DNA of 64,000 nucleotides from Actinomycetota bacterium (GCA_050693035.1 JBOGWB010000086.1:1640-65639); one strand, 5' to 3'; numbered from the stretch's first letter, positions 4,273 to 61,903 are shown. Translations and numbers: made by a program. The notes: generated by a model not told the origin, from the sequence alone.

Positions 4273-4291
4273 TAGAGGTCCCAGGCGCGTC

Positions 4292-39342: not shown

Positions 39343-39929
39343 CGGGGAGGCCGGCCTCCGTCGTCCCCACCGATGCGGCGGTAGGCCTGCCAGGTGTCCA
39401 CGTCGTCGGGCGGGTCGCCGCCCACCTCGACAGCGGTCACGCGGTCGGGCGCTCGAGCCAGGATGTCGCGCGCTCCGACGTCCCCCTCCACCTGCTGGAT
39501 CTCCGCCCATATCTTCCGGTCGAGGAGGACCGGGTGACCCGGCCGGCCGCCGTAGGACGCTTGCACGACGGGACCACCCGCTTCCTCGAACACCGCGACC
39601 ACCGCTCGGATGGCGGTGGGCGAGACCAGAGGCTGGTCGCCGAGGAGGATGACGGCGGCGCCGGTTTCGGGGCCCAGAGCCCGCAGGCCGGCTGCGAGCG
39701 ACGTCGACTGTCCTTCGGCGTAGCGGGGATTCATCGTGGTCCGCGCTCCCTTCGGGAGGCGGAGCGCGGCCGCCACGTCGTCCGCCTCGTGTCCGAGGAC
39801 CACGATCACCTCGTCGAGGCCGGCTTCACTCGCCGCGTCGATCGCGTGCTGGAGGAGCGGTTTTCCGCCGAGGGGAAGGAGCTGCTTGGGGCGGCCGAGT
39901 CGTGACGAGGTCCCAGCGGCGAGAATCAC
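39339..39929 (-). CDS. mocA: Molybdenum cofactor cytidylyltransferase (MobA-like NTP transferase, MocA type)
   Basis: 196-aa ORF. Features: MILAAGTSSRLGRPKQLLPLGGKPLL, VILLGDQPLV, GHPVLL. It is 8 nt downstream of xdhC on the same strand. Confidence 0.8.
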   Translation of the reverse strand: MILAAGTSSRLGRPKQLLPLGGKPLLQHAIDAASEAGLDEVIVVLGHEADDVAAALRLPKGARTTMNPRYAEGQSTSLAAGLRALGPETGAAVILLGDQPLVSPTAIRAVVAVFEEAGGPVVQASYGGRPGHPVLLDRKIWAEIQQVEGDVGARDILARAPDRVTAVEVGGDPPDDVDTWQAYRRIGGDDGGRPPR

Positions 39930-46435: not shown

Positions 46436-46917
46436 CGGTGGGCGAAGGCGCGAACGAAGACCGTCCCGAGGACGCCGTCCGGATGGTCGAGGTCGGAGGA
46501 AAGGAGATGACGGAACGACGGGCTGTGGCGTCGTGCGTGGTGTCAATGACGCCCGACGCGTGTGCCCGCCTGATCGCGGGGACGCCCAAGGGCGATCCCC
46601 TGGAGGCGGCCCGCGTCGCGGGGCTGCTCGGGGCGAAGCGCACCCCCGAGCTCCTCCCGTTCTGCCATCCGGTTGCCATCACCGGAGCGGAGGTGGCCGT
46701 GGAGCCGGACCCGGCGGAGGGCCGGGTGACGATCCGGGCCACCGTGAGAGCGCGGGACCGCACCGGCGTTGAGATGGAGGCCCTGACCGCGTGCGCGCTC
46801 GCGGCGCTCTCCATCTACGACACGACGAAGGCGTACGATCGCGCCGCGGTCATCTCAGATCTCAAGCTCGTCGAGAAGGACGGAGGGAAGAGCGGGCAGT
46901 ACCGACGGGGTACGTGA
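46432..46917 (+). CDS. moaC: Cyclic pyranopterin monophosphate synthase accessory protein
   Basis: ATG 46432 (ATGA overlap). Features: MVEVGGKEMTERRAVA, KGDPLEAARVAGLLGAKRTPELLPFCHPV, TGVEMEALTACALAALSIYD. Confidence 0.88.
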   Translation: MTVGEGANEDRPEDAVRMVEVGGKEMTERRAVASCVVSMTPDACARLIAGTPKGDPLEAARVAGLLGAKRTPELLPFCHPVAITGAEVAVEPDPAEGRVTIRATVRARDRTGVEMEALTACALAALSIYDTTKAYDRAAVISDLKLVEKDGGKSGQYRRGT

Positions 46918-46978: not shown

Positions 46979-48199
46979 ATGAAGCGGGACGAGCGATTCG
47001 CGGAAGAGGCGGGGCGCGACGCCGAGCGGATGACCGCGTTCCTCAGCGACCTCATCGCCAGGCCCAGCCTGTCGCGGCGCGAGGACGCCGTGGTCCAGCG
47101 GATCGCTTCCGAGATGACTGACCTTGGTTTCGACGAGGTCACGGTGGACGGATTCGGGAGCGTCATCGGCCGCATCGGTGACGGACCGGTCCACATCGTC
47201 TACGACTCCCACATCGACGTCGTGGACGTCGGCGACCCCGCAACCTGGAAGACGCGGCCGTTCGAGCCGGTGATCGAGGGGCGGACCCTCTACGGGCGAG
47301 GTGCGTCGGACAACAAGGCCGCCACCGCCTCGATGGTCTACGGCGCCGCGATGATCAAGCGGCTGGGGATCGACGCTTCCCGGTTCACGATCCACGTCAT
47401 CGGGACCGTGCAGGAGGAGGACTGCGACGGGCTCGCCCTCGAGCACATCCTCACGAAGGAGCTGCCCGACGTGAAGCTCGTGGTGCTTGGAGAGGCCACC
47501 AACCTCCAGGTCTATCGGGGGCATCGTGGGCGCGTGGAGTTTGCCGTCCACACGCGGGGCCGGGCGGCGCACGCCTCCGCCCCCGAGCGCGGCATCAACG
47601 CCATCTACAAGATGGCCCCGATCCTCCAGCAGATCGAGGAGCTCAACGATCGTCTGTCCGTGGACCCGTTCCTGGGCAAGGGCACGGTGGTGGTGTCGAG
47701 GGTCGAGGCCCAGACCCCCTCGATCAACGCGGTCCCCGACGGGTGCACGATCTACCTGGACCGCCGACTCACACTCGGAGAGTCGGTGGAGTCGGCGCGG
47801 AACGAGCTCGAGTCGCTGCCGGCGGTGCAGGACGGGGAGGCGACCATCGAGCTGCTGTCCTACGAGGGCAAGAGCTACACGGGCCTCACGCTGGTGACGG
47901 ACAAGTACTTCCCCACGTGGGTGATCCCGGAGAGCGATCCGGCGGTGGCGGCCGGCGTGGGGGCGGCCGAGCGGGCGCTTGGCCGGACCCCCGAGGTCGG
48001 CCGCTGGGTGTTCTCCACGAACGGTGTGGCCAGCGCCGGGAAGCTCGGGATCACCACGATCGGGTTCGGTCCGAGCAACGAGGTGTGGGCGCACAGCCCC
48101 GACGACCAGTGTCCCATCGACGACCTCCCACAGGCGGCGGCGTGGTACGCCGCGTTCCCGGAGGTCTACCTGTCGGCGTCGGGCGAGCGGGCGGGCTAG
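46979..48199 (+). CDS. ygeY: YgeY-family M20 metallopeptidase/deacylase
   Basis: 406-aa ORF. Features: YDSHIDVVDVGDPATW, LYGRGASDNKAA, TVQEEDCDG, VLGEATN...YRGHRGR, HASAPERGINAIYKM, GFGPSNEVWAHSPDD. Size and motifs match my recollection of E. coli YgeY (about 400 aa). Confidence 0.75.
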   Translation: MKRDERFAEEAGRDAERMTAFLSDLIARPSLSRREDAVVQRIASEMTDLGFDEVTVDGFGSVIGRIGDGPVHIVYDSHIDVVDVGDPATWKTRPFEPVIEGRTLYGRGASDNKAATASMVYGAAMIKRLGIDASRFTIHVIGTVQEEDCDGLALEHILTKELPDVKLVVLGEATNLQVYRGHRGRVEFAVHTRGRAAHASAPERGINAIYKMAPILQQIEELNDRLSVDPFLGKGTVVVSRVEAQTPSINAVPDGCTIYLDRRLTLGESVESARNELESLPAVQDGEATIELLSYEGKSYTGLTLVTDKYFPTWVIPESDPAVAAGVGAAERALGRTPEVGRWVFSTNGVASAGKLGITTIGFGPSNEVWAHSPDDQCPIDDLPQAAAWYAAFPEVYLSASGERAG

Positions 48200-48209
48200 G
48201 AGGCCGGAT

Positions 48210-50840
48210 ATGGCCACGCTGCGGTTCACGTTGAACGGGCATCCCGCGGAGGCAGAACCTCGCGAGGGAGCCAGCCTCCTCGACGTCCTCCGGGAAGACT
48301 GCGGACTCACCTCGATGAAGGACGGGTGCGCTCCCGAGGGCTCCTGCGGCGCGTGCACCGTGATCGTCGACGGCAAGGCCGTGGTGTCGTGCGCTCAGAG
48401 GGCCGCCCGAGCCGAGGGCAAGCACGTCACGACGCTCGAGGGTCTGCCCCAGGAGACGCGCGACCGGTGGGCCGACTCGTTCGTGGCTTCCGGCGCTTCC
48501 CAGTGCGGGTTCTGCTCGCCGGGGATCGTCATGAAGTCCGAGGCCATGCTGGAGAAGAATCCCCAACCCTCTCGGGAGGAGATCGCTCGGGGGCTGGCGG
48601 GGAACCTGTGCCGGTGCACGGGCTACGTGAAGATCGTGGACGCGGTGGACCTCGCCGCCCGGGCCCGCCGCGGTGAGCACGTCCCCGGTCCCGAAACGTC
48701 CGGCCGTGTGGGGGCCCGAACCGCCCGGTACGAGGGCCGGGACCTGGCCCTCGGCTCGAAGCCCTACGTCAACGACATGACGGCCGAAGGCCTGCTCCAC
48801 GGGGCGGTTCGCTTCTCCGACCACCCGCGGGCGAGGGTCCTCCGGATCGACACGACGAAGGCGGAGGCCCATCCCGAGGTCGTCGCCGTCGTGACGGCGA
48901 AGGACGTGCCGGGAGAGCGGCTCCAGGGACTCATCACCAGGGATTGGCGGCAGTTCGTGGCTGAAGGTGAGGTCACCAGCTGCGTCGGCGATGTCCTCGC
49001 CGCGGTGGCTGCGGAGACCCGGGCGGGGGCGCGCGAAGCGGCGGGGCTCGTCGAGGTGGACTACGAGGTGCTGGAGCCGGTGACGGATCCCCGCGACGCC
49101 CTGAAGCCCGACGCCCCCGAGCTCCAGGAGAACGGCAACGTGCTCTCCGTATCGAAGGTCAAGCAGGGAGACGTGGACGCCGCCTTGAAGGACGCCGCCC
49201 ATCGGGTCACCGAGCGGTTCGAGACCCAGTGGATCGAGCACGCGTTCCTCGAGCCGGAGTCCTCCCTGGCCGTGCCGTCGGAGGACGGCGGGCTGCACTT
49301 CTACTCCCAGGGACAGGGCGTCTGGGACGACCGCCGGCAGGTCGCATCGTTCCTCGGCCTGCCCGTGGAGAAGATCCGGGCCACGCAGGTATCGAACGGG
49401 GGGGCGTTCGGGGCGAAGGAGGACCTCAACGTCCAGTGCCACGCGTCCCTCCTGGCCCTCCGAACTGAGCGGCCGGTCAGGATCACGCTGTCGCGGGCGG
49501 AGAGCATCCGCTTCCACGCCAAGCGCCACCCGCTGTACATGGAGTACACGGCGGGATCCGATGCGGACGGCCACCTGGTGGCGGTGCGGGCGCGGATCAT
49601 CGGCGACACCGGCGCCTACGCCAGCGTGGGCGACAAGGTCCTGGAGCGCGCGGCGGGACATGCCTGCGGGCCGTACAAGGTTCCCAACGTCGACGTGGAG
49701 GCCCGCGCCGTCTACACGAACAACCCGCCGGCGGGAGCCATGCGGGGGTTCGGGGTGAACCAGGTGAACTTCGCCGTGGAGGGCATCCTCGACCTGCTCG
49801 CCGAGCAGGTGGGCATCGATCTTTGGGAGATCAGGTGGCGGAACGCCCTCGCCGAGGGCGACACGTTCGCCACCGGGCAGGTCCTTGGGCCCGGCGTCGG
49901 GCTGAAGAAGACCCTGGAAGCGGTGCGAGACGCGTTCCATTCGGCGAAGTACGCGGGCATCGCCTGTGGCCTCAAGAACAGCGGCGTCGGAAACGGCCTC
50001 ACCGAGTGGGGAAAGGCCATCCTGCGGGTCGAGGACGACGGCTCCGTCACGCTCTTCCATTCGTGGACGGAGATGGGCCAGGGCGTCCACACCGCGCTGC
50101 TCCAGATCGCCTGCGAGGAGCTGGGGCTCTCCCCGGAGAGGGTCCGGGTCGCGGTGGACACGATCCGAGACATCGACACCGGGCAGTGCACCGCGTCCCG
50201 ATCCACCGTGCTCGGTGGCAGGGCGGTGATCGAGGCCGCGCGCAAGCTCAACGCCCAGCTCGACGGGAAGAAGCTCGAGGAGCTCGCCGGCGAGGAGTTC
50301 TACGGCGAGTATAAGGTCGACTGGACCCATAAGCTCGGCACCGGACCCCCCGGGGGCGCCACCCACTACGCGTATGGATGGGCTACCCAGGTGTGCATCC
50401 TCGACGAGAATGGTCGCATCGAGCGGATCGTGGCCGCCCACGACGTGGGGAGGGTCATCAACCCCACGCTCCTGGAGGGTCAGATCGAAGGGGCAGTGCA
50501 CATGGGTCTGGGACATGCCCTATCCGAGGAGCTCGTCCTGGAGGGCGGAGTGCCCACGACCACCACGCTGAAGTCGCTCGGCATCATCCCTCCCATCGGG
50601 ATGCCAGAGGTCGAGTGCCTGTTCGTGGAGGAGCATCAGCCCGAGGGACCCTACGGAGCGAAGGGGGTAGGTGAGATCGGGCTGGTGCCGACGGCCTCGG
50701 CCGTGCGGACCGCGCTCTATCGCTACGACGGGGAGTTCCGCACCCGGCTGCCGATGGTCGACTCACCGGCGGCGCGGGCGGCGGTTCCGCGGTTGGCCGC
50801 GGCGGCCGCACGCCGGAGCGGAGAGGATCCTGCCACGTGA
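48210..50840 (+). CDS. xdhD: Fused [2Fe-2S] + molybdopterin-binding xanthine-dehydrogenase-family protein (XdhD-like)
   Basis: ATG 48210 with AGGAGG upstream, in track ORF 47979-50840, 876 aa. The N-terminus has CAPEGSCGACTV and QCGFCSPG...NLCRCTGY (two 2Fe-2S sites). Then Mo-domain motifs GGAFGAKED and GAMRGFGVNQ, and C-terminal YGAKGVGEIGLVP. Confidence 0.85.
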   Translation: MATLRFTLNGHPAEAEPREGASLLDVLREDCGLTSMKDGCAPEGSCGACTVIVDGKAVVSCAQRAARAEGKHVTTLEGLPQETRDRWADSFVASGASQCGFCSPGIVMKSEAMLEKNPQPSREEIARGLAGNLCRCTGYVKIVDAVDLAARARRGEHVPGPETSGRVGARTARYEGRDLALGSKPYVNDMTAEGLLHGAVRFSDHPRARVLRIDTTKAEAHPEVVAVVTAKDVPGERLQGLITRDWRQFVAEGEVTSCVGDVLAAVAAETRAGAREAAGLVEVDYEVLEPVTDPRDALKPDAPELQENGNVLSVSKVKQGDVDAALKDAAHRVTERFETQWIEHAFLEPESSLAVPSEDGGLHFYSQGQGVWDDRRQVASFLGLPVEKIRATQVSNGGAFGAKEDLNVQCHASLLALRTERPVRITLSRAESIRFHAKRHPLYMEYTAGSDADGHLVAVRARIIGDTGAYASVGDKVLERAAGHACGPYKVPNVDVEARAVYTNNPPAGAMRGFGVNQVNFAVEGILDLLAEQVGIDLWEIRWRNALAEGDTFATGQVLGPGVGLKKTLEAVRDAFHSAKYAGIACGLKNSGVGNGLTEWGKAILRVEDDGSVTLFHSWTEMGQGVHTALLQIACEELGLSPERVRVAVDTIRDIDTGQCTASRSTVLGGRAVIEAARKLNAQLDGKKLEELAGEEFYGEYKVDWTHKLGTGPPGGATHYAYGWATQVCILDENGRIERIVAAHDVGRVINPTLLEGQIEGAVHMGLGHALSEELVLEGGVPTTTTLKSLGIIPPIGMPEVECLFVEEHQPEGPYGAKGVGEIGLVPTASAVRTALYRYDGEFRTRLPMVDSPAARAAVPRLAAAAARRSGEDPAT

Positions 50841-52165
50841 CCCTGGCGCTCACCGGCGGCACCGTGGTGACCGGGCTGGACCGAACGGAGCTGACCGAGG
50901 CCGACGTCGTCCTCGACGGCCCCAGGATCGCGGCGGTGGGCGGCCGCCTTCCCGACGACTCGTCCGTGCGTGACTGCTCCGGATGCCTGGTGATCCCGGG
51001 GAACGTCTGCGCCCACCATCACCTCTACTCCTCCCTGGCGAGGGGAATGCCGTACCGGCTCGAGGCGCCCCGCAACTTCCTCCAGATCCTCCAGCGGGTG
51101 TGGTGGCGGCTGGACCGAGCCCTGGACGAGGACCTGGTCCGAGCGTCGGCTCTCGTCGGGGCGCTCGACGCCGTGCTCTCGGGCACCACGACCATCGTCG
51201 ACCATCACTCCTCACCGAACGCCGTCGACGGCTCGCTCGATCTGGTGGCCGACGCCCTCGAAGAGGTGGGGATCCGCTCGGTGCTGGCCTACGAGGTCAG
51301 CGACCGAGACGGTCGGGAGCGGGCTCAGGCGGGAATCGGGGAGAATGCACGGTTCATCGACCGCCGCCACCGGCTGTCCCGGGGGATGGTCGGCGCGCAC
51401 GCGTCCTTCACCCTTTCGGAAGAGACCCTGGTGGCGTGCGTCGAGCTGGCTCGTCGATCGCGGACCGGGATCCACGTCCACGTGGCCGAGGACGAGACGG
51501 ATCAGGCAGACGCGGAGGGGCGGTTCCGCCGCCGGGTGGTCCAGCGTCTTGCGGACTCGGGGGCGCTTTCGGAATCCGACCTCCTGGCCCACTGCGTGCA
51601 CCTGGAGCAGGCCGAGGCGGCCATCGTGCGCGAGGCCGGGGCCACCATCGCTCACAACCCTCGATCGAACATGAACAACGGCGTCGGCCGGGCTCGGGTG
51701 GCCCTGCTCGGGGAGCGGGTCGCCCTGGGGACCGACGGGATCGGCGGCGACATGATCACCGAGTCCCAGACTGCCTACTGGCGGGCCCGCGAAGACGATG
51801 TCCTGGTGACGCCGGCGTGGGCGCTCGGGCGCCTGTCGGAGGGGGCGCGGTTCGCCGGCCGCGCCTGGCGCGAGCCTCAGCTCGGCAGGATCGAGCCCGG
51901 GGCGCCGGCCGACGTCGTGGTGGTGGAGTACACCCCTCCCACGCCCCTCACCGTCGACGGCTTCCCGGGACATTGGATCTTCGGGATCTCCTCGCGCCAC
52001 GTCCGGGACGTGATCGTGGCCGGGGAGGTGGTAGTGGACCACCGCCGGCCGGTGCGCGTCGACCCGGAGGAGATCCTGTCGAACGCGTCCGGCGAGGCGG
52101 CCCGGTTGTGGGACCGGCTCACCGAGATCGAGCCGCACGAGTTCGAGCCCGCGGGCGCGCGATGA
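50837..52165 (+). CDS. ssnA: SsnA-like amidohydrolase (chlorohydrolase/aminohydrolase family)
   Basis: GTG 50837 (GTGA overlap), 442 aa. Features: [67 protein letters not shown]. It lies directly after the xdhD-like gene, as in E. coli. Confidence 0.75.
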
Positions 52166-53169
52166 CCACGTCGCCGCCTCGTGTGGCGCTCTACCTCCAG
52201 GACAAGCACCCCATCCGCGAGGGCATGAAGTTCGTCCGGTACGCCGAAGAGCGCGGCTTCGAGGCGGTGTGGCAGGCTGAGAGCCGACTGGTCCGGGAGG
52301 CCACCATCCCTCTGGCTGCATTCGCCGCCGTGACCGAGCGTCTCAAGCTCGGCTCGGGGGTGGTCAACATCTGGACCCGGAACGTGGCGCTTCTCGCCGC
52401 CACGTTCTCGACGCTCTGGGAGCTGGCCCCGCGCCGCGTCCTGCTCGGACTCGGCGCGTGGTGGGAGCCCCTGGCCACGAAGGTCGGCGTGAACCGACGG
52501 AGGTCGCTCCAGGCCATGCGGGAGGTCGTCGAGGTCACCCGGCGGTTGCTGAGTCTGGAACGGGTCACGTTCGACGGAGAGTTCGTGAAGGTGAATGACA
52601 TCGAGCTCGACATCGTCCACGGCGACCGCTCGCCGCGCGACGTCCCCATCTTCATCGGGGCCACCGGAATGAAGATGATGGAGCTCGCCGGGGAGATCGC
52701 CGACGGGGTGGTCCTCAACTACCTCGTGAGTCCTCGGTACAACGCCCGGGCGATGGAGGCGCTTGCGGCGGGAGCGGAGCGGGCCGGGAGGACCGTCGAG
52801 GACGTGGACCGCCCGCAGCTCGTGGTGTGCTCGCTCGACGAGGACCGGGACCGGGCGCTCGACCGCGCTAGGGAGCTGGTCACGCAGTACCTGGGGCAGC
52901 AACCGCACATCATGAAGGCCTCCGGCGTCGACCAGTCGCTCCTCGACGAGATCGGGAAGGTCATGACGTGGCCGGCGGGTCCAGAGGAGATCCGTCGGGC
53001 CATGGAGCTCGTCCCCGATGAGGTCGTGCACATGATCACGGCGTCGGGGACCCCGGAGGAATGCCGGGCCAAGGTCGGGGAGTACGTCGACTCGGGCTGC
53101 ACGTGCCCGATCCTCTACCCGCTCGGGGACGACGTGTACTCGATGATCGACGCGTTCGAGACGAACTGA
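52162..53169 (+). CDS. Luciferase-like monooxygenase (LLM) family oxidoreductase, possibly F420-dependent
   Basis: ATG 52162 (ATGA overlap), 335 aa. LLM pattern: [56 protein letters not shown]. The cofactor (F420 or FMN) cannot be decided by eye. Confidence 0.75.
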
Positions 53170-54053
53170 TGGACGTGCTCATCCCAAGAACCCTCGACGA
53201 GGCGCTGGAGATGAAGGCCGAGCGTCCCGAGGCCGTTCCCATCGCCGGCGGGACCGACCTCATGGTCGACCTGAACTTTGGGCGCCTCCGGCCCCCCGCA
53301 GTGATGGAGGTCTCGCGCCTACGCGAGCTCGCGGAGTTCCGAAGCGAGGACGGGTCCACGTTCCTCGGGGCGGGAGTGACCTACATGACGATCGAGCGCG
53401 AGCTCGGAGCGCTCGCCCCGCTGGTTCAGGCGTCCCGCACCGTCGGCTCCCCGCAGATCCGGAACCGCGCCACCGTCGGCGGAAACCTGGGTACGGCCTC
53501 GCCCGCCGGAGACGCTCTCCCCGTCCTGGCAGCGTACGACGCCGTGATCGTGATGGCCTCGGCGCGAGGAGGGACTCGCTCGCTTCCCTGGAACCGTTTC
53601 CTCACCGGTCCGAAGAAGAACGCCCTCCGGCCAGATGAGCTCATCCTCGGAGCGCGGTGGAAGGTCCCGAGGGGTCCGGGTTCGTTCTCCAAGATCGGGA
53701 CGAGGAACGCCATGGTCATCTCGGTGGCGGGGGTGTGCCTCCAGCTCGACGAGGACGATCGGAACGTGCGCGTCGCGCTCGGCTCGGTGGCTCCGACGAT
53801 CGTCCGAGCCCCCGATGCGGAGGAGTTCCTGGCGGGGGCCCTGGACGACGCCGGTGCGTGGGACGATCGTGGCGCGCCGGTTCCTCCTCCGGCCGTGGAG
53901 GAGTTCGGCGAGCGGGTTGCCGCTGCGGCCACTCCGATCGACGACGTGCGGGGAACCGCGGCATACCGTCGCCTTGGGGTGATGGTCCTGGCGCGACGAG
54001 CGCTCTCGTGGGCGCTGATGGAGCGAGCGGCGGGGGCGCTCGCGGAAGGCTGA
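53169..54053 (+). CDS. FAD-binding subunit of a molybdenum hydroxylase (CoxM/XdhB/YgfM-like)
   Basis: ATG 53169 (TGATG overlap). Features: IAGGTDLMVDLN, SPQIRNRATVGGNLGTASPAGD, PIDDVRGTAAYRR. Confidence 0.85.
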   Translation: MDVLIPRTLDEALEMKAERPEAVPIAGGTDLMVDLNFGRLRPPAVMEVSRLRELAEFRSEDGSTFLGAGVTYMTIERELGALAPLVQASRTVGSPQIRNRATVGGNLGTASPAGDALPVLAAYDAVIVMASARGGTRSLPWNRFLTGPKKNALRPDELILGARWKVPRGPGSFSKIGTRNAMVISVAGVCLQLDEDDRNVRVALGSVAPTIVRAPDAEEFLAGALDDAGAWDDRGAPVPPPAVEEFGERVAAAATPIDDVRGTAAYRRLGVMVLARRALSWALMERAAGALAEG

Positions 54054-54055
54054 GC

Positions 54056-54529
54056 GTGCTGGTCCGAGCGCTGGTCAACGGGGAGTGGCGGGAGGCCGAC
54101 GTCTGGCCCGGATCGAGCCTCCTGTACATGCTGCGCGAACACCTCGGCCTGCCCGGCTCGAAGAACGCGTGCGAGCAGGGTGAGTGCGGCTCGTGCTCCG
54201 TGTGGATGGAGGGAGAGCTGGTCTGCTCGTGCCTGGTCCTCGCGGCCCAGGCCGAGGGCAGGGATATCCGGACGGTGGAGTCCCTCTCCGACGGAGGAGA
54301 GCTCCACCCGGTGCAGGAGGCCTTCGTCGAAGCGGGCGCCGTGCAGTGCGGGTTCTGCACCCCGGGTCTGGTCGTGGCGGTGGTGGACCTCCTCGAGCGC
54401 GATCCCGACCCCAGCGAGGCCACGCTCCGGGAAGCCCTGTCGGGGAACCTGTGTCGATGCACGGGCTATCAGAAGATCATCGACGCCGTTCGGCTGGCAT
54501 CGGAGCGCATGAGAGGAGGCCTCGCCTGA
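54056..54529 (+). CDS. [2Fe-2S] small subunit of a molybdenum hydroxylase (CoxS-like)
   Basis: GTG 54056, 157 aa. Features: ACEQGECGSCSV, QCGFCTPG, NLCRCTGYQKI. Confidence 0.88.
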   Translation: MLVRALVNGEWREADVWPGSSLLYMLREHLGLPGSKNACEQGECGSCSVWMEGELVCSCLVLAAQAEGRDIRTVESLSDGGELHPVQEAFVEAGAVQCGFCTPGLVVAVVDLLERDPDPSEATLREALSGNLCRCTGYQKIIDAVRLASERMRGGLA

Positions 54530-55887
54530 CCCGGATCCTCATCGACTCGTGCGAGGTCGTCGTCACGATGGACGACGCCGGGACCGAGATCGCCGGAGGG
54601 TCCATCCTCGTGGAGGACGGAGCTATCGCCTGGGTGGGGGCGGGGGAACCGCCCGACGTGGAAGGAGCCGAGCGGATCAACGGCCGAGACACCGTGGCCG
54701 TTCCCGGCCTCGTGAACGCCCACCACCACCTGTACCAGACGCTGACCCGGGTGCGGGCCCAGCGCGAGGGCTTGTTCGGCTGGCTCACCGAGCTGTATCC
54801 GGTGTGGGCGGGAATCGACCAGGAATGGGAACGGGCCGCCGCGGGGGTGGCGCTCGCCGAGCTGGCCCTGTCCGGCTGCACGACGACCACCGACCACCAC
54901 TACGTGTTCCCCAGGGGCGCGGAGGGACTCCTCGAGGCCGAGATCGGGGTGGCCCGGGAGATCGGCCTTCGGTTCCACCCGTGTCGCGGCTCGATGGACC
55001 TGGGAGCGTCGGCCGGGGGCCTGCCTCCCGACGAGATCGTGGAGGACCCCGACGACGTGCTGGCTCGGACCGAGGAGGCCGTTTCGCGGTTCCACGACGG
55101 TGAGCCGGGCGGCATGGTCCGGGTCGCCGTGGGGCCGTGCTCGCCCTTCTCGGTCACCGAACGGCTCATGCGGGAGTCGGCCGCCCTGGCCCGCGGGCTG
55201 GGGGTCCGCCTCCACACGCACATCGCCGAGACGCTGGACGAGGACGCCTTCTGCCGGGAGAGGTTCGGCCGCAGCCCGCTGGAGCTCCTCGATGATCTGG
55301 GATTCCTGGGCGAGGACGTGTGGCTGGCGCACTGCGTCCACTTGGAGGACAAGGACGTGCGGAGGATCGCGGAGACCGGCACGGGAGTGGCGTGGTGCCC
55401 CACGTCGAACCTGCGCCTCGGGTCGGGGATCGCTCCCGCGCGGGCCCTCCTCGACGAGGGGGTCAGCGTGGGGCTCGGCGTTGACGGCTCCGCGTCGAAC
55501 GACGCCGGCGACATGATCGCGGAGGTCCGTCAGGCCATGCTGGTGGTTCGGGCGGACGGCGACCCCGGGGCCCTCTCCGCGCGAGACGCTCTCCGGGTGG
55601 CCACCCGAGGAAGCGCGGCGTGCCTCGGACGCGCCGACGTCGGTTCGCTCGAGCCGGGGAAGCGCGCCGACGTGGCCCTGTTCTCGCTCCAGGGCCTATC
55701 GTTCGCCGGCGCGGAGTCCGATCCGGTCGCGGCCGTCGTTCAGTGCGGGCCACAACGAGTCCGGCACCTCCTCGTTGAGGGAAGGCCGGTGGTCCGGGAC
55801 GGACGGCTCGTGAACGCCGACGAGGATGCCCTGGCGACCGAGGGCCGGCGGGTGGGCCGGCGCATCCTCGAGAAGGCCGGCCCATGA
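54526..55887 (+). CDS. Amidohydrolase, guanine/8-oxoguanine-deaminase-like (start codon ambiguous)
   Basis: Frame of track ORF 54184-55887. Features: VPGLVNAHHHLYQTL, CTTTTDHHY, RLHTHIAETLDE, LAHCVHL, WCPTSNLRLGSG, GVDGSASND. GAGAGGAGG at 54511-54519 points to initiation near CTG 54526. The other in-frame options are ATG 54457 (73-nt overlap with the previous gene) or ATG 54568 (truncating). Confidence 0.7.
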   Translation: MTRILIDSCEVVVTMDDAGTEIAGGSILVEDGAIAWVGAGEPPDVEGAERINGRDTVAVPGLVNAHHHLYQTLTRVRAQREGLFGWLTELYPVWAGIDQEWERAAAGVALAELALSGCTTTTDHHYVFPRGAEGLLEAEIGVAREIGLRFHPCRGSMDLGASAGGLPPDEIVEDPDDVLARTEEAVSRFHDGEPGGMVRVAVGPCSPFSVTERLMRESAALARGLGVRLHTHIAETLDEDAFCRERFGRSPLELLDDLGFLGEDVWLAHCVHLEDKDVRRIAETGTGVAWCPTSNLRLGSGIAPARALLDEGVSVGLGVDGSASNDAGDMIAEVRQAMLVVRADGDPGALSARDALRVATRGSAACLGRADVGSLEPGKRADVALFSLQGLSFAGAESDPVAAVVQCGPQRVRHLLVEGRPVVRDGRLVNADEDALATEGRRVGRRILEKAGP

Positions 55888-58316
55888 CGATCCGCACCGA
55901 CCGGCTGCTCAAACGCGGCGTGGGCGAGAGCGTCCAGCGCATCGACGGCGTTCCCAAGACCCAGGGGATGTTCCAGTACGGGAGCGACCTCTGGGCCGAG
56001 GGGATGCTGTGGGGCCACACCGTGCGGAGCCCCCATCCCCATGCCCGGATCAAGGACGTCGACGTCGGCGCCGCCCGGTCCTCCCCGGGGGTCCACGCGG
56101 TGCTGCTGGCGGCGGACGTGCCGGGGAAGAAGACGTACGGCCTCGAGTTCTCCGACCAGCCCGTGTTGGCATGGGACGTCGTGCGGTACGCGGGGGAGCC
56201 GGTGGCCGTGGTGGCCGCCGAACACCCGGAGCTGGCGCGACAGGCTGCGGCCAAGGTCCGGGTCGATTACGAGGCATTGAACCCGGTCACGGACATGGTC
56301 GACGCCCTCGGGCCCGGGGCGCCGCAGCTCCACGCGTGGGGGAACGTCCTCCGGCACGTGCGCATCGTCCACGGCGACCCCGATGCTCAGGCCGACGTGT
56401 GGGCCGAGGGCTACTACGAGACCGGGATGCAGGACCAGGCGCCGCTCGGTCCGGAGTCCGGCCTGGCGGTGCCCGGGGAAGACGGCGGCGTGGACCTGTA
56501 CGTCTCCACCCAGTGGCTGCACGTCGACCGCGAGCAGATCGCACCGTGCCTGGGGCTGCCCGAGGAGAAGGTTCGCCTGTACCTCGCCGGGGTCGGCGGG
56601 GCGTTCGGCGCCCGCGAGGACGTCCACATCCAGATCCATGCCTGCATGCTCGCTCTCGACACCGGAAAGCCGGTGAAGATGATGTATGGGCGCGAGGAGT
56701 CCTTCTTCGGCCACGTGCACCGCCACCCCTCCCGCATCTGGATGCGTCACGGAGCCACGCGCGACGGGAAGCTCGTGAACGTCCGGGTCCGGCTGCTGGT
56801 GGACGGGGGCGCCTACGCGTCGTCCTCAGCGGCGGTCATCGGCAACGCCTCCACGTTCGCCGCGGGCCCCTACGAGGTCGAAAACGCCCTCATCGAGGGA
56901 ACCGGTGTGTACACGAACAACCCGCCGTGCGGCGCCATGCGGGGGTTCGGAGCCGTCCAGGCGTGCTTCGCTTTCGAATCCCAGATGGACAAGCTGGCGA
57001 AGGAGCTCCGGCTCCACCCGCTGGAGATCCGGCGGAGGAACGCGCTCCGCAGCGGGTCCACCCTCCCCACGGGCCAGGTCATCCGGGGGACCGCCCCGGT
57101 CCGGGAGCTGCTGGATCGGCTCGAGGGCATCCCCCTCCCGACCGACGAGCTCGCCGAGACCCGCGACCCCATCACGTTCCCGGGCGGGGCGGGGAACGTC
57201 GGACATGGGGAGGGTCTCAAGCGAGGGATCGGCTACGCGGTGGGCTACAAGAACATCGCGTACAGCGAGGGGTTCGATGACTCCGCAGAGGCCAGGGTGA
57301 CGCTGTTCCGGGGGACATCCGGCCCGGTGGCCGAGGTGCACAGCGCCGCCGCGGAGGTCGGGCAGGGCGTGCACACGATCATGGCCCAGATCGCCCGCAC
57401 CGAGCTCGGCGTCGACGACGTGATGCTCCATCCGTCAGACACGAGCGTCGGTTCCGCCGGCTCCAGCTCTGCCTCGCGCCAAACCATGATGTCCGGCGGT
57501 GCCGTCGAGCTCGCCGCCACGGCGGTTCGCGACGACTTGCTCGAGCGGGTACGAGCCCGAGCGAAGTCCGCGAATTCCCCGCTGGGAGGGGAGCTGTCCC
57601 TGGCCGACGGCCGGATCCTGCTCGACGGCGTTCCGATCGGTGACATCGACGAATTCCTCGACGAGCCCATCACCGCGACCCGCGTCTACCACCACCGGCA
57701 GACCACTCCGATCGACGAGCGAGGGCAGGGGGAGCCTCACGTGTCGTTTGCATTCGCGGCCCAGCGAGCGGTGGTGGAGGTGGACGAGGACCTGGGCTTG
57801 GTGAGAGTGGTCGAGATAGCTTCGGTGCAGGACGTGGGGAAGGCCCTGAACCCCCAGAGCGTCCACGGACAGGTCGAGGGCGGGACCGCCCAGGGCCTGG
57901 GGCTGGCGCTCATGGAGGAGATCCAACTGACGGAGGGCGTCATCAAGAACGCGTCATTCACCGACTATCTGATCCCCACGATCCTCGACATGCCTCCGGT
58001 GGTCTCGGAGTTGCTCGAGGAGCCGGAGCCCGGCGTGCCGTACGGAGCGAAAGGGGTGGGCGAACCGTCCACCATCGTGTCCACGGCCGCCATCGCCGCG
58101 GCGCTTCGGGACGCCACGGGCCGGGAGCTGAACCGCGTCCCGGTTACCCCGGACGACCTTGTGGGGTTGAGGCCCCCTGCAGAAGCCGGCCCACCGCCGC
58201 CCGCTCCCGACGTCCCCTTCCCCGAGCCCGTGCCGAAGCACGCCGGGATCGCCGCCGGACAGACCGAGCTGGGCGGCCACGATGAAGCCGACGGGTATCA
58301 GGGAGGCAAGGGGTGA
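55884..58316 (+). CDS. Molybdopterin-binding large subunit of a xanthine-dehydrogenase/CO-dehydrogenase-family hydroxylase
   Basis: ATG 55884 (ATGA overlap), 810 aa. Features: GVPKTQGMFQYGSD, YAGEPVAVVAAE, GGAFGAREDV, GAMRGFGAVQ, YGAKGVGEPST. Confidence 0.88.
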   Translation: MTIRTDRLLKRGVGESVQRIDGVPKTQGMFQYGSDLWAEGMLWGHTVRSPHPHARIKDVDVGAARSSPGVHAVLLAADVPGKKTYGLEFSDQPVLAWDVVRYAGEPVAVVAAEHPELARQAAAKVRVDYEALNPVTDMVDALGPGAPQLHAWGNVLRHVRIVHGDPDAQADVWAEGYYETGMQDQAPLGPESGLAVPGEDGGVDLYVSTQWLHVDREQIAPCLGLPEEKVRLYLAGVGGAFGAREDVHIQIHACMLALDTGKPVKMMYGREESFFGHVHRHPSRIWMRHGATRDGKLVNVRVRLLVDGGAYASSSAAVIGNASTFAAGPYEVENALIEGTGVYTNNPPCGAMRGFGAVQACFAFESQMDKLAKELRLHPLEIRRRNALRSGSTLPTGQVIRGTAPVRELLDRLEGIPLPTDELAETRDPITFPGGAGNVGHGEGLKRGIGYAVGYKNIAYSEGFDDSAEARVTLFRGTSGPVAEVHSAAAEVGQGVHTIMAQIARTELGVDDVMLHPSDTSVGSAGSSSASRQTMMSGGAVELAATAVRDDLLERVRARAKSANSPLGGELSLADGRILLDGVPIGDIDEFLDEPITATRVYHHRQTTPIDERGQGEPHVSFAFAAQRAVVEVDEDLGLVRVVEIASVQDVGKALNPQSVHGQVEGGTAQGLGLALMEEIQLTEGVIKNASFTDYLIPTILDMPPVVSELLEEPEPGVPYGAKGVGEPSTIVSTAAIAAALRDATGRELNRVPVTPDDLVGLRPPAEAGPPPPAPDVPFPEPVPKHAGIAAGQTELGGHDEADGYQGGKG

Positions 58317-58326
58317 AGGCGGGAGG

Positions 58327-59322
58327 ATGAAGAGGAACACCCTCACGGGACGGGACTACATCGAGACGCTCGACTGGACCATCGAGGAGATCGAGGAGGC
58401 CATCTCGGTGGCCACGCAGCTCAAGGAGAAGTTCCGCCAGGGCGAGCCCCATCGTCTCCTGGCCGACCGCACGCTGTTCATGCTGTTCCTGGACAAGTCC
58501 ACGCGCACCCGCAACGCATTCGAGGCGGGGATGACCCAGCTCGGCGGGCACGCGCACTACCTGGACGCGGAGAAGACCCAGGTCGCCCACGGGGAGAGTC
58601 CCAAGGACATGGGCGTCATCCTGTCGCGGTACGGACACGGGATCGCCATCCGCCACGACCTCATCCCGTACGAGGGCAACGCGTACATGCGTGAGGTCGC
58701 CCGATGGGCGGACGCCCCGGTCATCAATCTCCAGTGCGACGTGGACCACCCGACCCAGACCCTGGCGGACCTGATGACCCTCCGCGAGAAGCGAGGGACC
58801 GACCTTCGAGGGATGCGGGTGGCCGTGTCGTGGGCGTACGCCCCGTCGTACGCGAAGCCCCTGTCCGTCCCTCAGGGCCTGTGCGCCCTCCTTCCCCGGT
58901 TCGGGATCGACGTCGTCCTCGCGTACCCCGAGGGATGGGACCTCATGCCCGCCCTCATGGAGCGGGCTCAGAAAGCGGCGACGGAGGGCGGAGGCTCGAT
59001 CACGATCGCCCACGACATGGAGGAGGCGTTCCGTGATGCCGACGCCGTGTACCCGAAGTCATGGGGGCGACTGGACCTGTTCACCGACGAGCGGGCCGCC
59101 CTGGAGGTCTCCGAGCCACATCGAGGATGGATCTGCGACGTGGAGCGGATGGGCCGGGCCAAGGAGGACGCTCTCTATCTCCACTGCTTGCCCGCCGACC
59201 GGGGGAGTGAGGTGACCGACGAGGTCATCGATGGCCCGCAGTCCGTCGTCTACGACGAAGCGGAGAATAGGCTGCACACGGGCAAGGCGCTCATGGCTCT
59301 GACGATGGGCGGCTTCGCCTGA
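58327..59322 (+). CDS. ygeW: YgeW-family (knotted) carbamoyltransferase
   Basis: ATG 58327 with GGGAGG upstream, 331 aa. Features: STRTRNAFE, GNAYMREV, NLQCDVDHPTQ, SWAYAPSYAKPLSVPQG, AYPEGWDL, EEAFRDADAVYPKSW, LYLHCLPAD. These match the segments I recall from E. coli YgeW, although this protein is shorter. Confidence 0.8.
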   Translation: MKRNTLTGRDYIETLDWTIEEIEEAISVATQLKEKFRQGEPHRLLADRTLFMLFLDKSTRTRNAFEAGMTQLGGHAHYLDAEKTQVAHGESPKDMGVILSRYGHGIAIRHDLIPYEGNAYMREVARWADAPVINLQCDVDHPTQTLADLMTLREKRGTDLRGMRVAVSWAYAPSYAKPLSVPQGLCALLPRFGIDVVLAYPEGWDLMPALMERAQKAATEGGGSITIAHDMEEAFRDADAVYPKSWGRLDLFTDERAALEVSEPHRGWICDVERMGRAKEDALYLHCLPADRGSEVTDEVIDGPQSVVYDEAENRLHTGKALMALTMGGFA

Positions 59323-59337
59323 CGGGGCCAGCGGGCT

Positions 59338-59574
59338 CTACCGCCGCCTCTTCTTCAGCCCGTCGGGGGCGATACTCGCCGCGATGTCGTACGCCTCCCC
59401 CAGACGGGACCTGTCGACGAATAATCTGGGACCCCACTCCATGAACAACGCGTAGGAAAGGGTCCCCGGGTTCTTGCACCACCACATGATCCCCGCCTCT
59501 TCCAGGGCCTCGGCGATGCGGTTGGCATGCTCCCACGTGAACTGGCCGAGATAGACGGTGGTGATCCCGCTCAT
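59338..59574 (-). CDS. Small hypothetical protein
   Basis: 78-aa ORF, 9 nt downstream of the GNAT gene on the same strand. Trp-rich (IMWWCKNPG, FMEWGP) with a basic tail (KKRRR). No family recognised. Confidence 0.45.
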   Translation of the reverse strand: MSGITTVYLGQFTWEHANRIAEALEEAGIMWWCKNPGTLSYALFMEWGPRLFVDRSRLGEAYDIAASIAPDGLKKRRR

Positions 59575-59583
59575 GGACCGATC

Positions 59584-60114
59584 TTAGCCCGGCGGCCGCC
59601 AACGTCCCGGTGTGATGGCGTACAGGACGAAGTCGGTGCCGGATTCCTTGAGCGATCGCTCTGAGACGAAGCCCAGCTTCTCGAGTACCCGTCGCATCGA
59701 CGAGTTGTCGGGCGGCGTGGCCGCCTGGAGCCGCGTCGCGCCGGCGTGATCGAAGAGCCAGTCGGCCAGCAGGACGAGGGCCTCCGTGCCGTGGCCCATC
59801 CCCCGTGAGGCCTCCTCGAACAGGCCGACGCCGATCTCGAACCAGCGCGGAGGGAGGGTCCGAGCCGGAGGGCGGTACGTGCCGATCTCTCCGACGAGGA
59901 GCCCGTCGGCCTCGATTGCCAGGTCGAGCCGCCCATTCTCGAGGTGGCCCGACCGCTCCACCCGGGTCCGGAGGGCGTCTCGGGTCGGCGGGCCGCCCGG
60001 CTGCTCGGCGTAAGCATTCAGGCGAGCGGCCCACCACGCGTCGAGCTCCCCTCGGCGGAAGGGGCGAAGGACGACCCGTTGTCCCTCGAGGCGCACGTGC
60101 CTTCCGGGTCCCAC
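59584..60114 (-). CDS. GNAT-family N-acetyltransferase (RimJ/RimL-like)
   Basis: C-terminal part of track ORF 59584-60273; the likely start is GTG at 60114 or 60096. Features: VVLRPFRRGELDAW, IGVGLFEEASRGMGHGTEALVLLADWLF (acetyl-CoA-binding region), SMRRVLEKLGF. Confidence 0.75.
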   Translation of the reverse strand: MGPGRHVRLEGQRVVLRPFRRGELDAWWAARLNAYAEQPGGPPTRDALRTRVERSGHLENGRLDLAIEADGLLVGEIGTYRPPARTLPPRWFEIGVGLFEEASRGMGHGTEALVLLADWLFDHAGATRLQAATPPDNSSMRRVLEKLGFVSERSLKESGTDFVLYAITPGRWRPPG

Positions 60115-60154
60115 GCCGCCCAGGATAGGTGGGACCCGAGTACACTTCCGCAAA

Positions 60155-61903
60155 ATGGCCCCCCGGGACGAGCCGCCCTTTCGCCAGAAGCTCCGCCGGC
60201 GCCTCGCCGTGTCGCGGGGGGACGAGCCGGCCGACCTGGTGATCCGAGGCGGACGGGTCCTCTCGGTGTTCACGGGCGAGCTGCTCGAGGCCGACGTCGC
60301 GGTGGCCGGAGAGCACGTGGCGGGCGTGGGCCGCTACGACGACGGCAGGCAGACCGTGGATGCCTCCGGCCTCGTTCTCCTTCCCGGTTTCATCGACGGG
60401 CACATGCACATCGAGTCCACGAAGCTCATGGTGGACGAGTTCGCGAGAGCCGCGCTGCCGTGGGGGACCACCACGGTCGTCCTCGACCCCCACGAGATCG
60501 CCAACGTGTTCGGTCTGGACGGAGTTCGGGCCATCCTGGCGTCGGCCGATGCGGTGCCCCTCGACTACTACGTGATGGTGTCCTCCTGCGTACCGGCGTC
60601 GGCATTCGAGTCGAGCGCCCACACCGTAACCGCCGAGGATATCGCCCGGTTCCTGGAAGAGGAGCCGCGGGCGCTCGGGGTCGCCGAGATGATGAACTTC
60701 CCTTCCGTGGTCCGGGGCGACGACGACGCGCTGTCCAAGCTCGAAGCGGCGCGGTTGGCGGGCGGTGGGCACGTCGATGGGCACGCACCGGGACTCTCCG
60801 GCCGCGACCTGAACGCCTATATCGCTGCCGGAGTACGAAGCGACCACGAGTGCACGACGTACCAGGAGGCGTTGGAGAAGCGTCGCCTGGGGATGTGGAT
60901 CATGATCCGAGAGGGGTCCGCGGCCCGGAACCTCGAAGCTCTCCTCCCTCTGGTGCTCGAGCTTGGTCCGGGGAACTCCATGCTCTGTACCGATGATCGG
61001 GAGCCCGACCAGTTGTTGCGCGAAGGCCACATCAACGACGTCATGCGCAGAGCGGTGGTGCTGGGGTGCCCTCCGGCCGAGGCGGTGGTGATGGGAACCC
61101 TCAACGCTGCTCGCTATCACCGTCTCCACGAGCATGGCGCCTTGGCTCCCGGCTACCTCGCCGACATCGTGACGGTGGAAGACCTGGAACGGTTTCGACC
61201 AGTCAAGGTCTGGAAGCGCGGCCGGTTGGTGGCGCAAGACGGTCGGGCCGCGGACATCCCCCGGGTGGCGGCTCCGGATTGGATGCGGGGCAGCGTGCGC
61301 GTGCCCGCCCTCACGGCCGGCGACTTCCGAATGGAGGCCGGAGGCCGGGTGCGAGTGATCGGAGTGGACGCGGGAGAGATCGTGACCCGGGCCCTGGTCC
61401 TCGAGCCCGCCAGGCGCGACGGCGAAGCCGTCGCCGATCCCGGACGAGACCTGGCCAAGGCGGCGGTCGTCGAGCGCCACAAGGGAACGGGGCGGATCGG
61501 TCTTGGCTTCGTGCAGGGGTTCGGCCTCAGGCGCGGAGCCCTGGCTTCCACGCACGCTCACGACGCTCACAACGTCGTGGTCGTCGGGGTCGACGATACG
61601 GACATGGCAGTGGCGGTGAACCGGCTCGCGGAGATCGGCGGTGGCCAGGTGGCGGTGGCCGGCGGGCACGTGTTGGGGGAGGTGCCCTGCCCCATCGGAG
61701 GGCTCATATCGGACCGGCCGGTGGAGGAGGTGGCGGCCGCCGTCGAGCACATGGAGAAGGCCGCCTCAGAGCTTGGAGTCATCATCCAGTCCCCGTTCAT
61801 GGCCATCTCGTTCCTGGCCCTCTCGGTGGTCCCCGAGCTCAAGCTGACCGACCTTGGCCTGGTCGATGCGGTGAAGTTCGAGCTCGTCCCGCTGGAGGCG
61901 TAG
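60155..61903 (+). CDS. ade: Adenine deaminase
   Basis: 582-aa ORF. Features: LLPGFIDGHMHIEST, GTTTVVLDPHEIANV, VAEMMNFPSV, VDGHAPGLSGRDLNAYIAAGVRSDHE, TDDREP, and the C-terminal HDAHNVVVVG module typical of Ade. Confidence 0.88.
   Translation: MAPRDEPPFRQKLRRRLAVSRGDEPADLVIRGGRVLSVFTGELLEADVAVAGEHVAGVGRYDDGRQTVDASGLVLLPGFIDGHMHIESTKLMVDEFARAALPWGTTTVVLDPHEIANVFGLDGVRAILASADAVPLDYYVMVSSCVPASAFESSAHTVTAEDIARFLEEEPRALGVAEMMNFPSVVRGDDDALSKLEAARLAGGGHVDGHAPGLSGRDLNAYIAAGVRSDHECTTYQEALEKRRLGMWIMIREGSAARNLEALLPLVLELGPGNSMLCTDDREPDQLLREGHINDVMRRAVVLGCPPAEAVVMGTLNAARYHRLHEHGALAPGYLADIVTVEDLERFRPVKVWKRGRLVAQDGRAADIPRVAAPDWMRGSVRVPALTAGDFRMEAGGRVRVIGVDAGEIVTRALVLEPARRDGEAVADPGRDLAKAAVVERHKGTGRIGLGFVQGFGLRRGALASTHAHDAHNVVVVGVDDTDMAVAVNRLAEIGGGQVAVAGGHVLGEVPCPIGGLISDRPVEEVAAAVEHMEKAASELGVIIQSPFMAISFLALSVVPELKLTDLGLVDAVKFELVPLEA

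Follow-up and report, generated by a model that had tools for sequence, protein, structure and literature searches.

A probable F420-using version of the reductive urate pathway in a purine-catabolism operon of an uncultured actinobacterium

Experiments in E. coli, C. difficile and C. sporogenes, published in two studies in 2025, solved the reductive urate pathway and assigned the roles of its enzymes (Li et al., 2025, Life Metab, PMC12507026; Liu et al., 2025, bioRxiv 10.1101/2025.04.24.650524). Urate is dehydroxylated to 2,8-dioxopurine (“yanthine”), either by XdhD-YgfM, as in E. coli, or by the FAD-less Fe-S/molybdenum (Mo) fusion protein XdhAC (2,8-dioxopurine dehydrogenase, DOPDH) of C. 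sporogenes, a species with both a xanthine dehydrogenase (XDH) and a DOPDH (PMC12507026; 10.1101/2025.04.24.650524). The ring is reduced by YgfK, or by UacX in C. difficile, in a step that works only when coupled to SsnA, and the later steps, catalysed by HyuA, YgeW with YqeA, YgeY and YgeX, yield pyruvate, ammonia and ATP (PMC12507026; 10.1101/2025.04.24.650524). The selenium-cofactor markers YqeB/YqeC accompany the pathway in all gut strains studied (PMC12507026; 10.1101/2025.04.24.650524). In Chloroflexota, SsnA neighbourhoods without YgfK/UacX have been described, and a putative F420-dependent yanthine reductase was predicted there (Li et al., 2025, Fig. 3c and Discussion, PMC12507026); we found no paper in the literature that puts this prediction to the test. 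Here, we describe a purine-catabolism gene cluster at positions 46979-61903 of a 64-kb stretch of DNA from an Actinomycetota assembly (GCA_050693035.1; contig C86:1640-65639, hereafter the window), in which a gene for a luciferase-like (LLM) oxidoreductase overlaps an ssnA-like gene.

The locus is probably a purine-catabolism operon that encodes an F420-using version of the reductive urate pathway, and the LLM protein is most likely the replacement for YgfK/UacX as 2,8-dioxopurine reductase. These catalytic assignments, and those below, rest on sequence, gene context and phyletic pattern. The LLM protein is likely to take the place of YgfK because its gene overlaps ssnA, the same trio of genes recurs in other species, it co-occurs with SsnA, no LLM-positive genome has a full-length YgfK, and the host has genes for F420. 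An initial annotation, made from the sequence of the window, had proposed an actinobacterial variant of the ygeW-xdhD type of purine/urate pathway, a proposal that is supported here. Its statement that the chemistry of the middle steps is undescribed is superseded by the 2025 studies and by the F420-dependent LLM swap already predicted for Chloroflexota. The pathway itself is known, the locus being a variant of it and no new kind of system, and the central idea has already been printed as a one-sentence prediction.

The assembly comprises 2.15 Mb in 104 contigs, with a G+C content of 68.8%, and is estimated to be 89% complete with 1.3% contamination. The nearest named relatives of its RpoB (85-92% identity) are all “Actinomycetota bacterium” metagenome-assembled genomes (MAGs), and the host is therefore an uncultured (soil) actinobacterium. 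Genes were called from codon-position G+C, then by Pfam and NCBIfam profile searches with curated cut-offs. The E. coli K-12 cluster proteins were run by tblastn against the whole assembly, and matches were confirmed with NCBIfam. By these means, nine co-directional genes plus adenine deaminase were found on the plus strand at 46979-61903, in the array and with the gene families given in the initial annotation:

46979..48199, plus strand: YgeY-family M20 hydrolase (NF009555, 478 bits, cut-off 321; 46% identity to E. coli YgeY)
48210..50840, plus strand: fused 2Fe-2S and Mo-cofactor hydroxylase without a FAD domain (TIGR03311, 1019 bits, cut-off 830)
50837..52165, plus strand: SsnA-like amidohydrolase (NF005540, 423.5 bits, cut-off 444; next-best family 169)
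52162..53169, plus strand: Mer-like LLM oxidoreductase (PF00296, 228 bits)
53169..54053, plus strand: XdhB-type FAD subunit of xanthine dehydrogenase (PF00941 and PF03450)
54056..54529, plus strand: XdhC/PucE-type 2Fe-2S subunit (PF01799 and PF00111)
about 54526..55887, plus strand: 8-oxoguanine deaminase family amidohydrolase (NF006055, 636 bits, cut-off 532)
55884..58316, plus strand: PucD-type Mo subunit of xanthine dehydrogenase (TIGR03196, 839 bits, cut-off 784)
58327..59322, plus strand: compact YgeW-like carbamoyltransferase of 331 aa (YgeW model, 252 bits, cut-off 453; ornithine carbamoyltransferase (OTC) model, 250 bits, cut-off 306)
60155..61903, plus strand: adenine deaminase, Ade (TIGR01178, 589 bits, cut-off 472.5)

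Five of the junctions, as read from the sequence, are start/stop overlaps: GTGA between the fusion and SsnA, ATGA between SsnA and the LLM protein, TGATG between the LLM protein and the FAD subunit, CTGA between the 2Fe-2S subunit and the deaminase, and ATGA between the deaminase and PucD. Three other junctions are short gaps, which separate ygeY from the fusion gene (10 nt, with GGAGG inside), the FAD from the 2Fe-2S subunit (2 nt) and PucD from the carbamoyltransferase (10 nt). The CTG at 54526 lies 6 nt after a GGAGG, and precisely at its position GTGA or ATGA is found in seven orthologous loci. Given this ribosome-binding site and these orthologues, the 8-oxoguanine deaminase probably starts at the CTG that overlaps the 2Fe-2S stop codon; either CTG serves here as a rare start, or the start codon has been weakened. 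The arrangement was compared with the best 80 loci of LLM orthologues from other species, taken from species-representative genomes with a neighbourhood of 10 kb. The fusion, SsnA, LLM, FAD, Fe-S, PucD and carbamoyltransferase genes all occur together in 14 of these 80 loci, a recurrence that is not due to chance, and the full gene order including YgeY and Ade is repeated at loci L023 and L027.

Relatives of the LLM protein are found in at least 595 species-representative genomes, and very close homologues (79-91% identity) in many metagenomes. The best 80 relatives share 67-84% identity with it and come from Actinomycetota, Chloroflexota, Acidobacteriota, Armatimonadota and others. SsnA is encoded directly upstream, on the same strand, in 47 of these 80 loci and within 10 kb in 57, and the fusion lies within 10 kb in 44; recurrence of the fusion-SsnA-LLM trio is widespread. 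The phyletic pattern was examined in 401 genomes of the phylum, which were searched separately for LLM, SsnA (threshold E <= 1e-70) and YgfK. The LLM orthologue is present in 30 of them (about 7% of sampled Actinomycetota) and SsnA in 40, with SsnA in 24 of the 30 LLM-positive genomes vs. 16 of the 371 LLM-negative genomes (odds ratio 89, Fisher p = 1e-22). Full-length YgfK was found in 12 of the 401 genomes, none of which is LLM-positive. The 16 genomes with SsnA and without LLM comprise nine with full-length YgfK (which adjoins SsnA in both genomes checked by coordinates, G041 and G167), one with a partial YgfK match adjoining SsnA (G128), three with a protein of about 400 aa that resembles the YgfK N-terminal domain only (adjoining SsnA in G105 and G146), and three small genomes. 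Among SsnA-positive genomes, LLM and YgfK are alternatives (p = 9e-6).

The NCBIfam matches of the LLM protein at E <= 1e-10 number 17, all of them F420 families that score under their cut-offs, with no FMN-type family among them. The best curated model is Mer (175 bits, cut-off 276), and the closest proteins of solved structure are the F420-dependent Mer, FGD1 and hydroxymycolate dehydrogenase, all nine PDB matches being F420 enzymes. For F420 synthesis, the assembly encodes FbiC (520 bits, cut-off 374), a fused 850-aa gene just upstream of cofD on contig C63. The cofD gene is itself split over the ends of contigs C63 (16696-17301) and C92 (14058-14267), with matches of 234 and 40 bits, and these two contigs are therefore adjacent in the real chromosome. 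An NADPH:F420 oxidoreductase (Fno) is also present (220 bits, cut-off 150). In three Chloroflexota loci, an LLM orthologue (69-73% identical) directly follows cofD-cofC (L056:8126-11002) or cofC (L063:9327-10993, L052:9174-11005), with no purine genes within 10 kb. Since the only matching families and structures are of the F420 type, the host has FbiC, CofD and Fno, and orthologues follow cofC/cofD in these three loci, the cofactor of the LLM protein is probably F420.

The fused hydroxylase had been labelled xdhD-like, but it belongs to TIGR03311 and not to TIGR03313, the family of E. coli XdhD, on which it scores 233 bits vs. a cut-off of 1102. Orthology with E. coli XdhD was rejected on this score, on an identity to XdhD (27%) that is no better than that to XdhA (29%), and on a missing insertion, which carries E606 in XdhD; the fusion also retains an Arg where XdhD has a Gln. 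It keeps the equivalents of E802, R880 and E1261, the Glu/Arg/Glu of classical XDH. Fusions adjoining genuine ssnA-ygfK clusters have the same three residues, which are therefore no argument against a DOPDH function. In the same phylum, two canonical SsnA-YgfK clusters each have an adjoining fusion, which is 40-43% identical to the one described here, its best match among the query proteins. By architecture the fusion is of the XdhAC/DOPDH type, and it is predicted to be a 2,8-dioxopurine dehydrogenase.

The FAD subunit, the 2Fe-2S subunit and PucD are recognisable as an ordinary three-subunit XDH of the PucCDE type; the YgfM model gives 47 bits for the FAD subunit, vs. a cut-off of 241. The initial annotation had regarded them as a second hydroxylase added to the cluster, and had suggested that the LLM and this enzyme may replace the YgfK and hydantoinase steps. 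Because E. coli (xdhABC, which in K-12 adjoins the ygeW-xdhD cluster) and C. sporogenes also have a separate true XDH, the second hydroxylase is a canonical component and not an addition. A hydantoinase-replacing role was rejected for it, as PucD is an equivalog match and the genome has a hydantoinase; the LLM part of the suggestion holds, in that this protein is the best candidate for a substitute of YgfK.

On TIGR03314, the SsnA-like protein scores 404 bits (cut-off 455.5), and it shares 35% identity with E. coli SsnA and the same synteny as in the canonical ssnA-ygfK clusters of the phylum. The carbamoyltransferase scores 252 and 238 bits on two YgeW models (cut-offs 453 and 500), lacks three YgeW insertions and the C-terminal tail, and has equal PDB scores for YgeW and OTC structures. 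In an alignment it shows the YgeW-specific motif WAYxPSYxKPLSVPQG, and YPKSW replaces the OTC motif DVWASMG; it is 40% identical to YgeW and 35% identical to the ArgF-like protein of the same genome. An ordinary OTC was rejected because the SMG loop is missing, the motifs are those of YgeW, and a separate ArgF-like gene is found on contig C1. The YgeW-like label of the initial annotation needs qualifying, as the protein has 331 aa and scores under the YgeW cut-off.

Homologues of ygeX, hyuA, yqeA, ygfK and yqeC were reported as not seen in the window, and tblastn with the E. coli proteins likewise found none within its 64 kb. The conclusion drawn from this, that several canonical members are missing, does not extend to the genome, in which only YgfK and YqeB/YqeC went undetected. 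The initial annotation had foreseen that the missing genes might lie just outside the window, as is the case for a diaminopropionate ammonia-lyase (YgeX) at C86:67559-68731, on the same strand, 1.9 kb after the window ends and some 4 kb downstream of the Ade stop codon (NF006058, 318 bits, cut-off 276; TIGR03528, 249 bits, under the cut-off of 532). The other two genes are on different contigs. The only hydantoinase, a D-hydantoinase, is encoded on contig C91 (TIGR02033, 599 bits, cut-off 393; 43% identity to E. coli HyuA), between a nitrilase-superfamily gene of the carbamoylase/beta-ureidopropionase-like kind and a CoA-acylating (methyl)malonate-semialdehyde dehydrogenase (MMSDH) gene (C91:243-3952), and a carbamate kinase on contig C90 (TIGR00746, 390 bits, cut-off 358; 42% identity to YqeA). 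Both are unlinked to the cluster in this genome, while their orthologues are cluster-linked in 14 and 17 of the 80 related loci, respectively. No PydA-like reductase to match the pyrimidine-type trio on C91 was found in the assembly. Across the whole genome, the best match to YgfK (TIGR03315) reaches 31 bits and YqeC has one partial match of 21 bits.

These negative results carry limited weight, because the assembly lacks any protein of PF01180, the dihydroorotate dehydrogenase family to which UacX belongs, even pyrD (none above 19 bits, whereas all 14 control genomes have one), and must therefore have real gaps. No transthyretin-type 5-hydroxyisourate (HIU) hydrolase, the marker of the oxidative route, was found in the 89%-complete assembly, which fits a reductive route as the outlet for urate.

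Between the adenine deaminase and the lyase lie an acyltransferase gene and the pyruvate dehydrogenase E1 gene aceE (C86:64808-67480, minus strand), and a xanthine/uracil-family permease is encoded beyond the lyase on the same contig. On the other side of the array, the upstream mocA/xdhC and molybdenum-cofactor (Moco) genes of the initial annotation were confirmed:

39339..39929, minus strand: MocA/MobA-like nucleotidyltransferase, probably a Moco cytidylyltransferase (PF12804, 140 bits; 25% identity to E. coli MocA by tblastn)
39938..41080 (start approximate), minus strand: XdhC/CoxI-type Moco insertion chaperone, copy 1 (PF02625 and PF13478)
43561..44475 (start uncertain), plus strand: XdhC/CoxI-type chaperone, copy 2 (PF02625 and PF13478)
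44493..45185, plus strand: MoaD-MoaE fusion, molybdopterin synthase (PF02597 and PF02391)
44954..46435 (open frame; true start probably about 45190), plus strand: MoeA molybdopterin molybdenumtransferase (PF03453, PF00994, PF03454)
46399..46917, plus strand: MoaC (NF006870, 174 bits, cut-off 162)

An acetyl-CoA synthetase gene (window 41104-43461, minus strand) splits these Moco genes, and its product, like that of aceE, handles predicted end products of the pathway. The first XdhC copy is a plain XdhC and not a YqeB, as it aligns with the XdhC part only of E. coli YqeB (27% identity). No YqeB-type chaperone was found, both XdhC-family genes being without the YqeB-specific part. A SelD gene is present at C66:7674-8597 (377 bits) and has one in-frame TGA, so that SelD probably contains selenocysteine; from this selenocysteine-type SelD, the organism appears to use selenium, despite the lack of detectable YqeB/YqeC. 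The selenium dependence implied by the name “Se_dep_XDH” is not supported, since YqeB/YqeC were not found, though SelD is present. Elsewhere in the window, positions 4001-6000 form a low-G+C stretch (58% vs. about 69%), and an Rfam scan of the window returned no riboswitch or other RNA family.

Taken together as a pathway, adenine would be converted to hypoxanthine by adenine deaminase, and hypoxanthine to xanthine and urate by the PucCDE-type XDH (FAD, 2Fe-2S and PucD), with the 8-oxoguanine-deaminase-family enzyme providing a second feed into urate. The FAD-less Fe-S/Mo fusion would form 2,8-dioxopurine by taking the 6-oxo group off urate. The Mer-like LLM protein would then transfer a hydride from F420H2 to the C6 side of this compound, the electrons passing from NADPH via Fno to F420H2 and on to the LLM. 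The translationally coupled SsnA homologue would hydrolyse the reduced ring to a ureidomethyl-hydantoin, which the hydantoinase encoded on contig C91 would open to 2,3-diureidopropionate. Phosphorolysis of one (2-)ureido group by the YgeW-like carbamoyltransferase would then release carbamoyl phosphate, from which the carbamate kinase of contig C90 would make ATP. Hydrolysis of the other ureido group (the 3-ureido group of albizziin) by YgeY would leave 2,3-diaminopropionate, and the diaminopropionate ammonia-lyase would turn this into pyruvate and ammonia.

Several variants were seen among the related loci. In the sister cluster L007-L010 (e.g., L009:1086-11014), two pyridoxal phosphate (PLP)-dependent enzymes of the PALP family and two carbamoyltransferases (317 and 325 aa) are encoded upstream of fusion-SsnA-LLM, and neither YgeY nor a hydantoinase is present; both ureido groups may be removed phosphorolytically there. 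The gene after ssnA at L102:7870-10127 (G105) and L103:8505-10732 (G146) encodes the protein of about 400 aa that resembles the YgfK N-terminal domain only, and SsnA itself is shorter there (about 350 aa); this may be a third reductase format in the phylum. Two Acidobacteriota MAGs (L020:7797-9464, L032:8168-9787) have an LLM orthologue divergent to a 540-555-aa protein of Amidohydro_3, the Pfam family of the C. difficile UacY enzyme. Across phyla, LLM is by far the most conserved gene of the cluster, with 71% identity vs. 44% for SsnA in L070 and 79% vs. 61% in L027; for a catabolic enzyme, it has either diverged unusually slowly or spread recently.

Several observations weigh against an F420-using reductive pathway at this locus. 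The LLM protein scores under every curated NCBIfam cut-off, so that its cofactor and substrate are predicted, and the SsnA-like protein and the carbamoyltransferase score under their equivalog cut-offs. The hydantoinase belongs to an apparently pyrimidine-type trio on another contig, and its role in the urate pathway is assumed. A UacX/PydA-type reductase, or YqeC, could sit in the assembly gaps. At about 14 of the 80 loci, the LLM orthologue (69-76% identity) is alone, without SsnA within 10 kb; six of the 30 LLM-positive genomes lack SsnA at the threshold used; and two Anaerolineae genomes have LLM beside cofC/cofD and no SsnA orthologue at all. The adjacency to cofC/cofD backs the use of F420, yet the family may have a wider or different F420-linked role. 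In a first rival reading, the urate pathway is reductive and the LLM protein has another F420-linked function, such as F420 recharging, the reduction of another intermediate or heterocycle (e.g., uracil) or a pterin/folate-type reaction like that of Mer, the real ring reductase being encoded elsewhere or in an assembly gap. In addition to the unlinked orthologues and the three cofC/cofD loci, this would account for the far higher conservation of LLM (67-91% identity) than of SsnA (42-65%), which fits a general role, and for Mer as the source of the best models and structures; the assembly without PF01180 or pyrD shows that gaps to hold such a reductase exist. The co-occurrence of LLM with SsnA at the level of genomes is nevertheless strong (24/30 vs. 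16/371), an SsnA orthologue is encoded elsewhere in 12 of the 14 genomes in which LLM is unlinked, and no LLM-positive genome has a full-length YgfK. The translational coupling to ssnA also parallels the adjacency of ygfK and ssnA, whose products depend on each other's action in vitro. The idea of a general F420 housekeeping enzyme was accordingly kept as a rival and judged less likely on the co-occurrence statistics, and we regard a different function of the LLM protein as unlikely.

The remaining rivals dispense with the reductive degradation of urate altogether. The locus could be a conventional system of oxidative purine salvage and deamination, with two XDH-type hydroxylases and two purine/pterin deaminases, to which YgeY, the carbamoyltransferase and the LLM protein are unrelated, and with no reductive ring cleavage. 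The classical Glu/Arg/Glu of the fusion would then be taken at face value, along with the lack of the E606 insertion and of the Arg-to-Gln change of XdhD, as would the sub-cut-off scores of SsnA and the carbamoyltransferase and the relationship of SsnA to chlorohydrolase and deaminase families. But the same Glu/Arg/Glu is found in fusions beside bona fide ssnA-ygfK clusters, the carbamoyltransferase has the motifs of YgeW and not those of OTC, and an HIU hydrolase for oxidative disposal of urate was not found. In many species, the co-directional, overlapping genes also reappear as a set alongside those for the carbamoyltransferase, a carbamate kinase, a hydantoinase and a diaminopropionate lyase. 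All this makes the oxidative alternative quite improbable. A very small probability is likewise given to the possibility that the fusion-SsnA-LLM trio acts on some other N-heterocycle, such as a pterin, a derivative of isoguanine or 8-oxopurine, or a heterocycle from plants or soil, through comparable reactions (hydroxylation or dehydroxylation, then hydride reduction and ring hydrolysis), with the purine genes as mere neighbours. Substrate specificity is not readable from sequence, the identities of SsnA to E. coli SsnA (35%) and of the fusion to E. coli XdhD (27%) are low, and relatives exchange the downstream genes, as in the clusters with two carbamoyltransferases, two PLP enzymes and no YgeY. 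Against this, XDH, adenine deaminase, 8-oxoguanine deaminase and purine permeases are consistently co-located with the trio, and the downstream enzymes all suit a C3 backbone with two ureido groups, as would be derived from urate. The F420-using reductive urate pathway is thus the reading that we prefer.

The reductive urate pathway, worked out only in 2025, has so far been treated as a property of anaerobes in the gut. From this locus and its many relatives, it seems that environmental phyla carry out the key dearomatising step in a third way, with an enzyme that is not homologous to YgfK or UacX. We propose, with about even confidence, that the Mer-like LLM protein is an Fe-S-free F420H2:2,8-dioxopurine reductase through which the “anaerobic” reductive urate pathway operates in a very broad range of Actinomycetota, Chloroflexota, Acidobacteriota and Armatimonadota from soil, freshwater and groundwater. 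The pathway may also run without the YqeB/YqeC selenium-cofactor system and in oxygen-respiring organisms. If so, F420 chemistry would extend to the reduction of the purine ring, and the view of purine nitrogen recycling in soil would change, the reductive route, and not the uricase route alone, being a major fate of soil purine nitrogen. Such a small, Fe-S-free reductase would also lend itself more readily to enzyme cascades or to strains engineered to lower urate.

In comparison with known systems, the genome shares with the E. coli cluster ygeW-ygeX-ygeY-hyuA-yqeA...ygfK-ssnA-ygfM-xdhD the genes for YgeY, an SsnA-like protein, a YgeW-like carbamoyltransferase, the lyase, the hydantoinase and the carbamate kinase, as well as an Fe-S/Mo hydroxylase beside ssnA, a separate adjoining three-subunit XDH, and mocA and xdhC-type genes nearby. 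It differs in that YgfK was not found and an F420-type LLM gene overlaps ssnA instead; the Mo enzyme is of TIGR03311 and not of the XdhD family TIGR03313, without a YgfM-type partner; the carbamoyltransferase, at 331 aa, lacks three YgeW insertions; the hydantoinase and carbamate kinase genes are unlinked and the lyase gene is 4 kb away; and YqeB/YqeC were not detected. The pathways of C. sporogenes and C. difficile resemble it in the FAD-less Fe-S/Mo fusion as DOPDH candidate, in the presence of a second, true XDH, and in the variability of the reductase step, for which YgfK/UacX are a precedent of non-homologous replacement. Unlike in these clostridia, the reductase candidate here is an LLM TIM barrel, which has neither an Fe-S cluster nor a flavin domain and represents a third family unrelated to the other two, and YqeB/YqeC were not found, while SelD is present. 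Mer (PDB 8QQ8, 1Z69, 1F07) provides both the closest structure and the best model for the LLM protein, is itself an LLM TIM barrel, and uses F420H2 to deliver a hydride to a carbon adjacent to ring nitrogens; the LLM is nonetheless not a Mer equivalog by score, has no methanopterin context and is embedded in a purine operon. The closest counterpart is the Chloroflexota variant of Li et al. (2025), in which a PF00296 LLM beside SsnA replaces YgfK/UacX and for which the same prediction was made. Whereas Li et al. limit the variant to Chloroflexota and give no analysis of it, the locus described here is from Actinomycetota, and orthologues are recorded from several phyla, in at least 595 species-representative genomes, together with counts that show a distribution complementary to that of YgfK.

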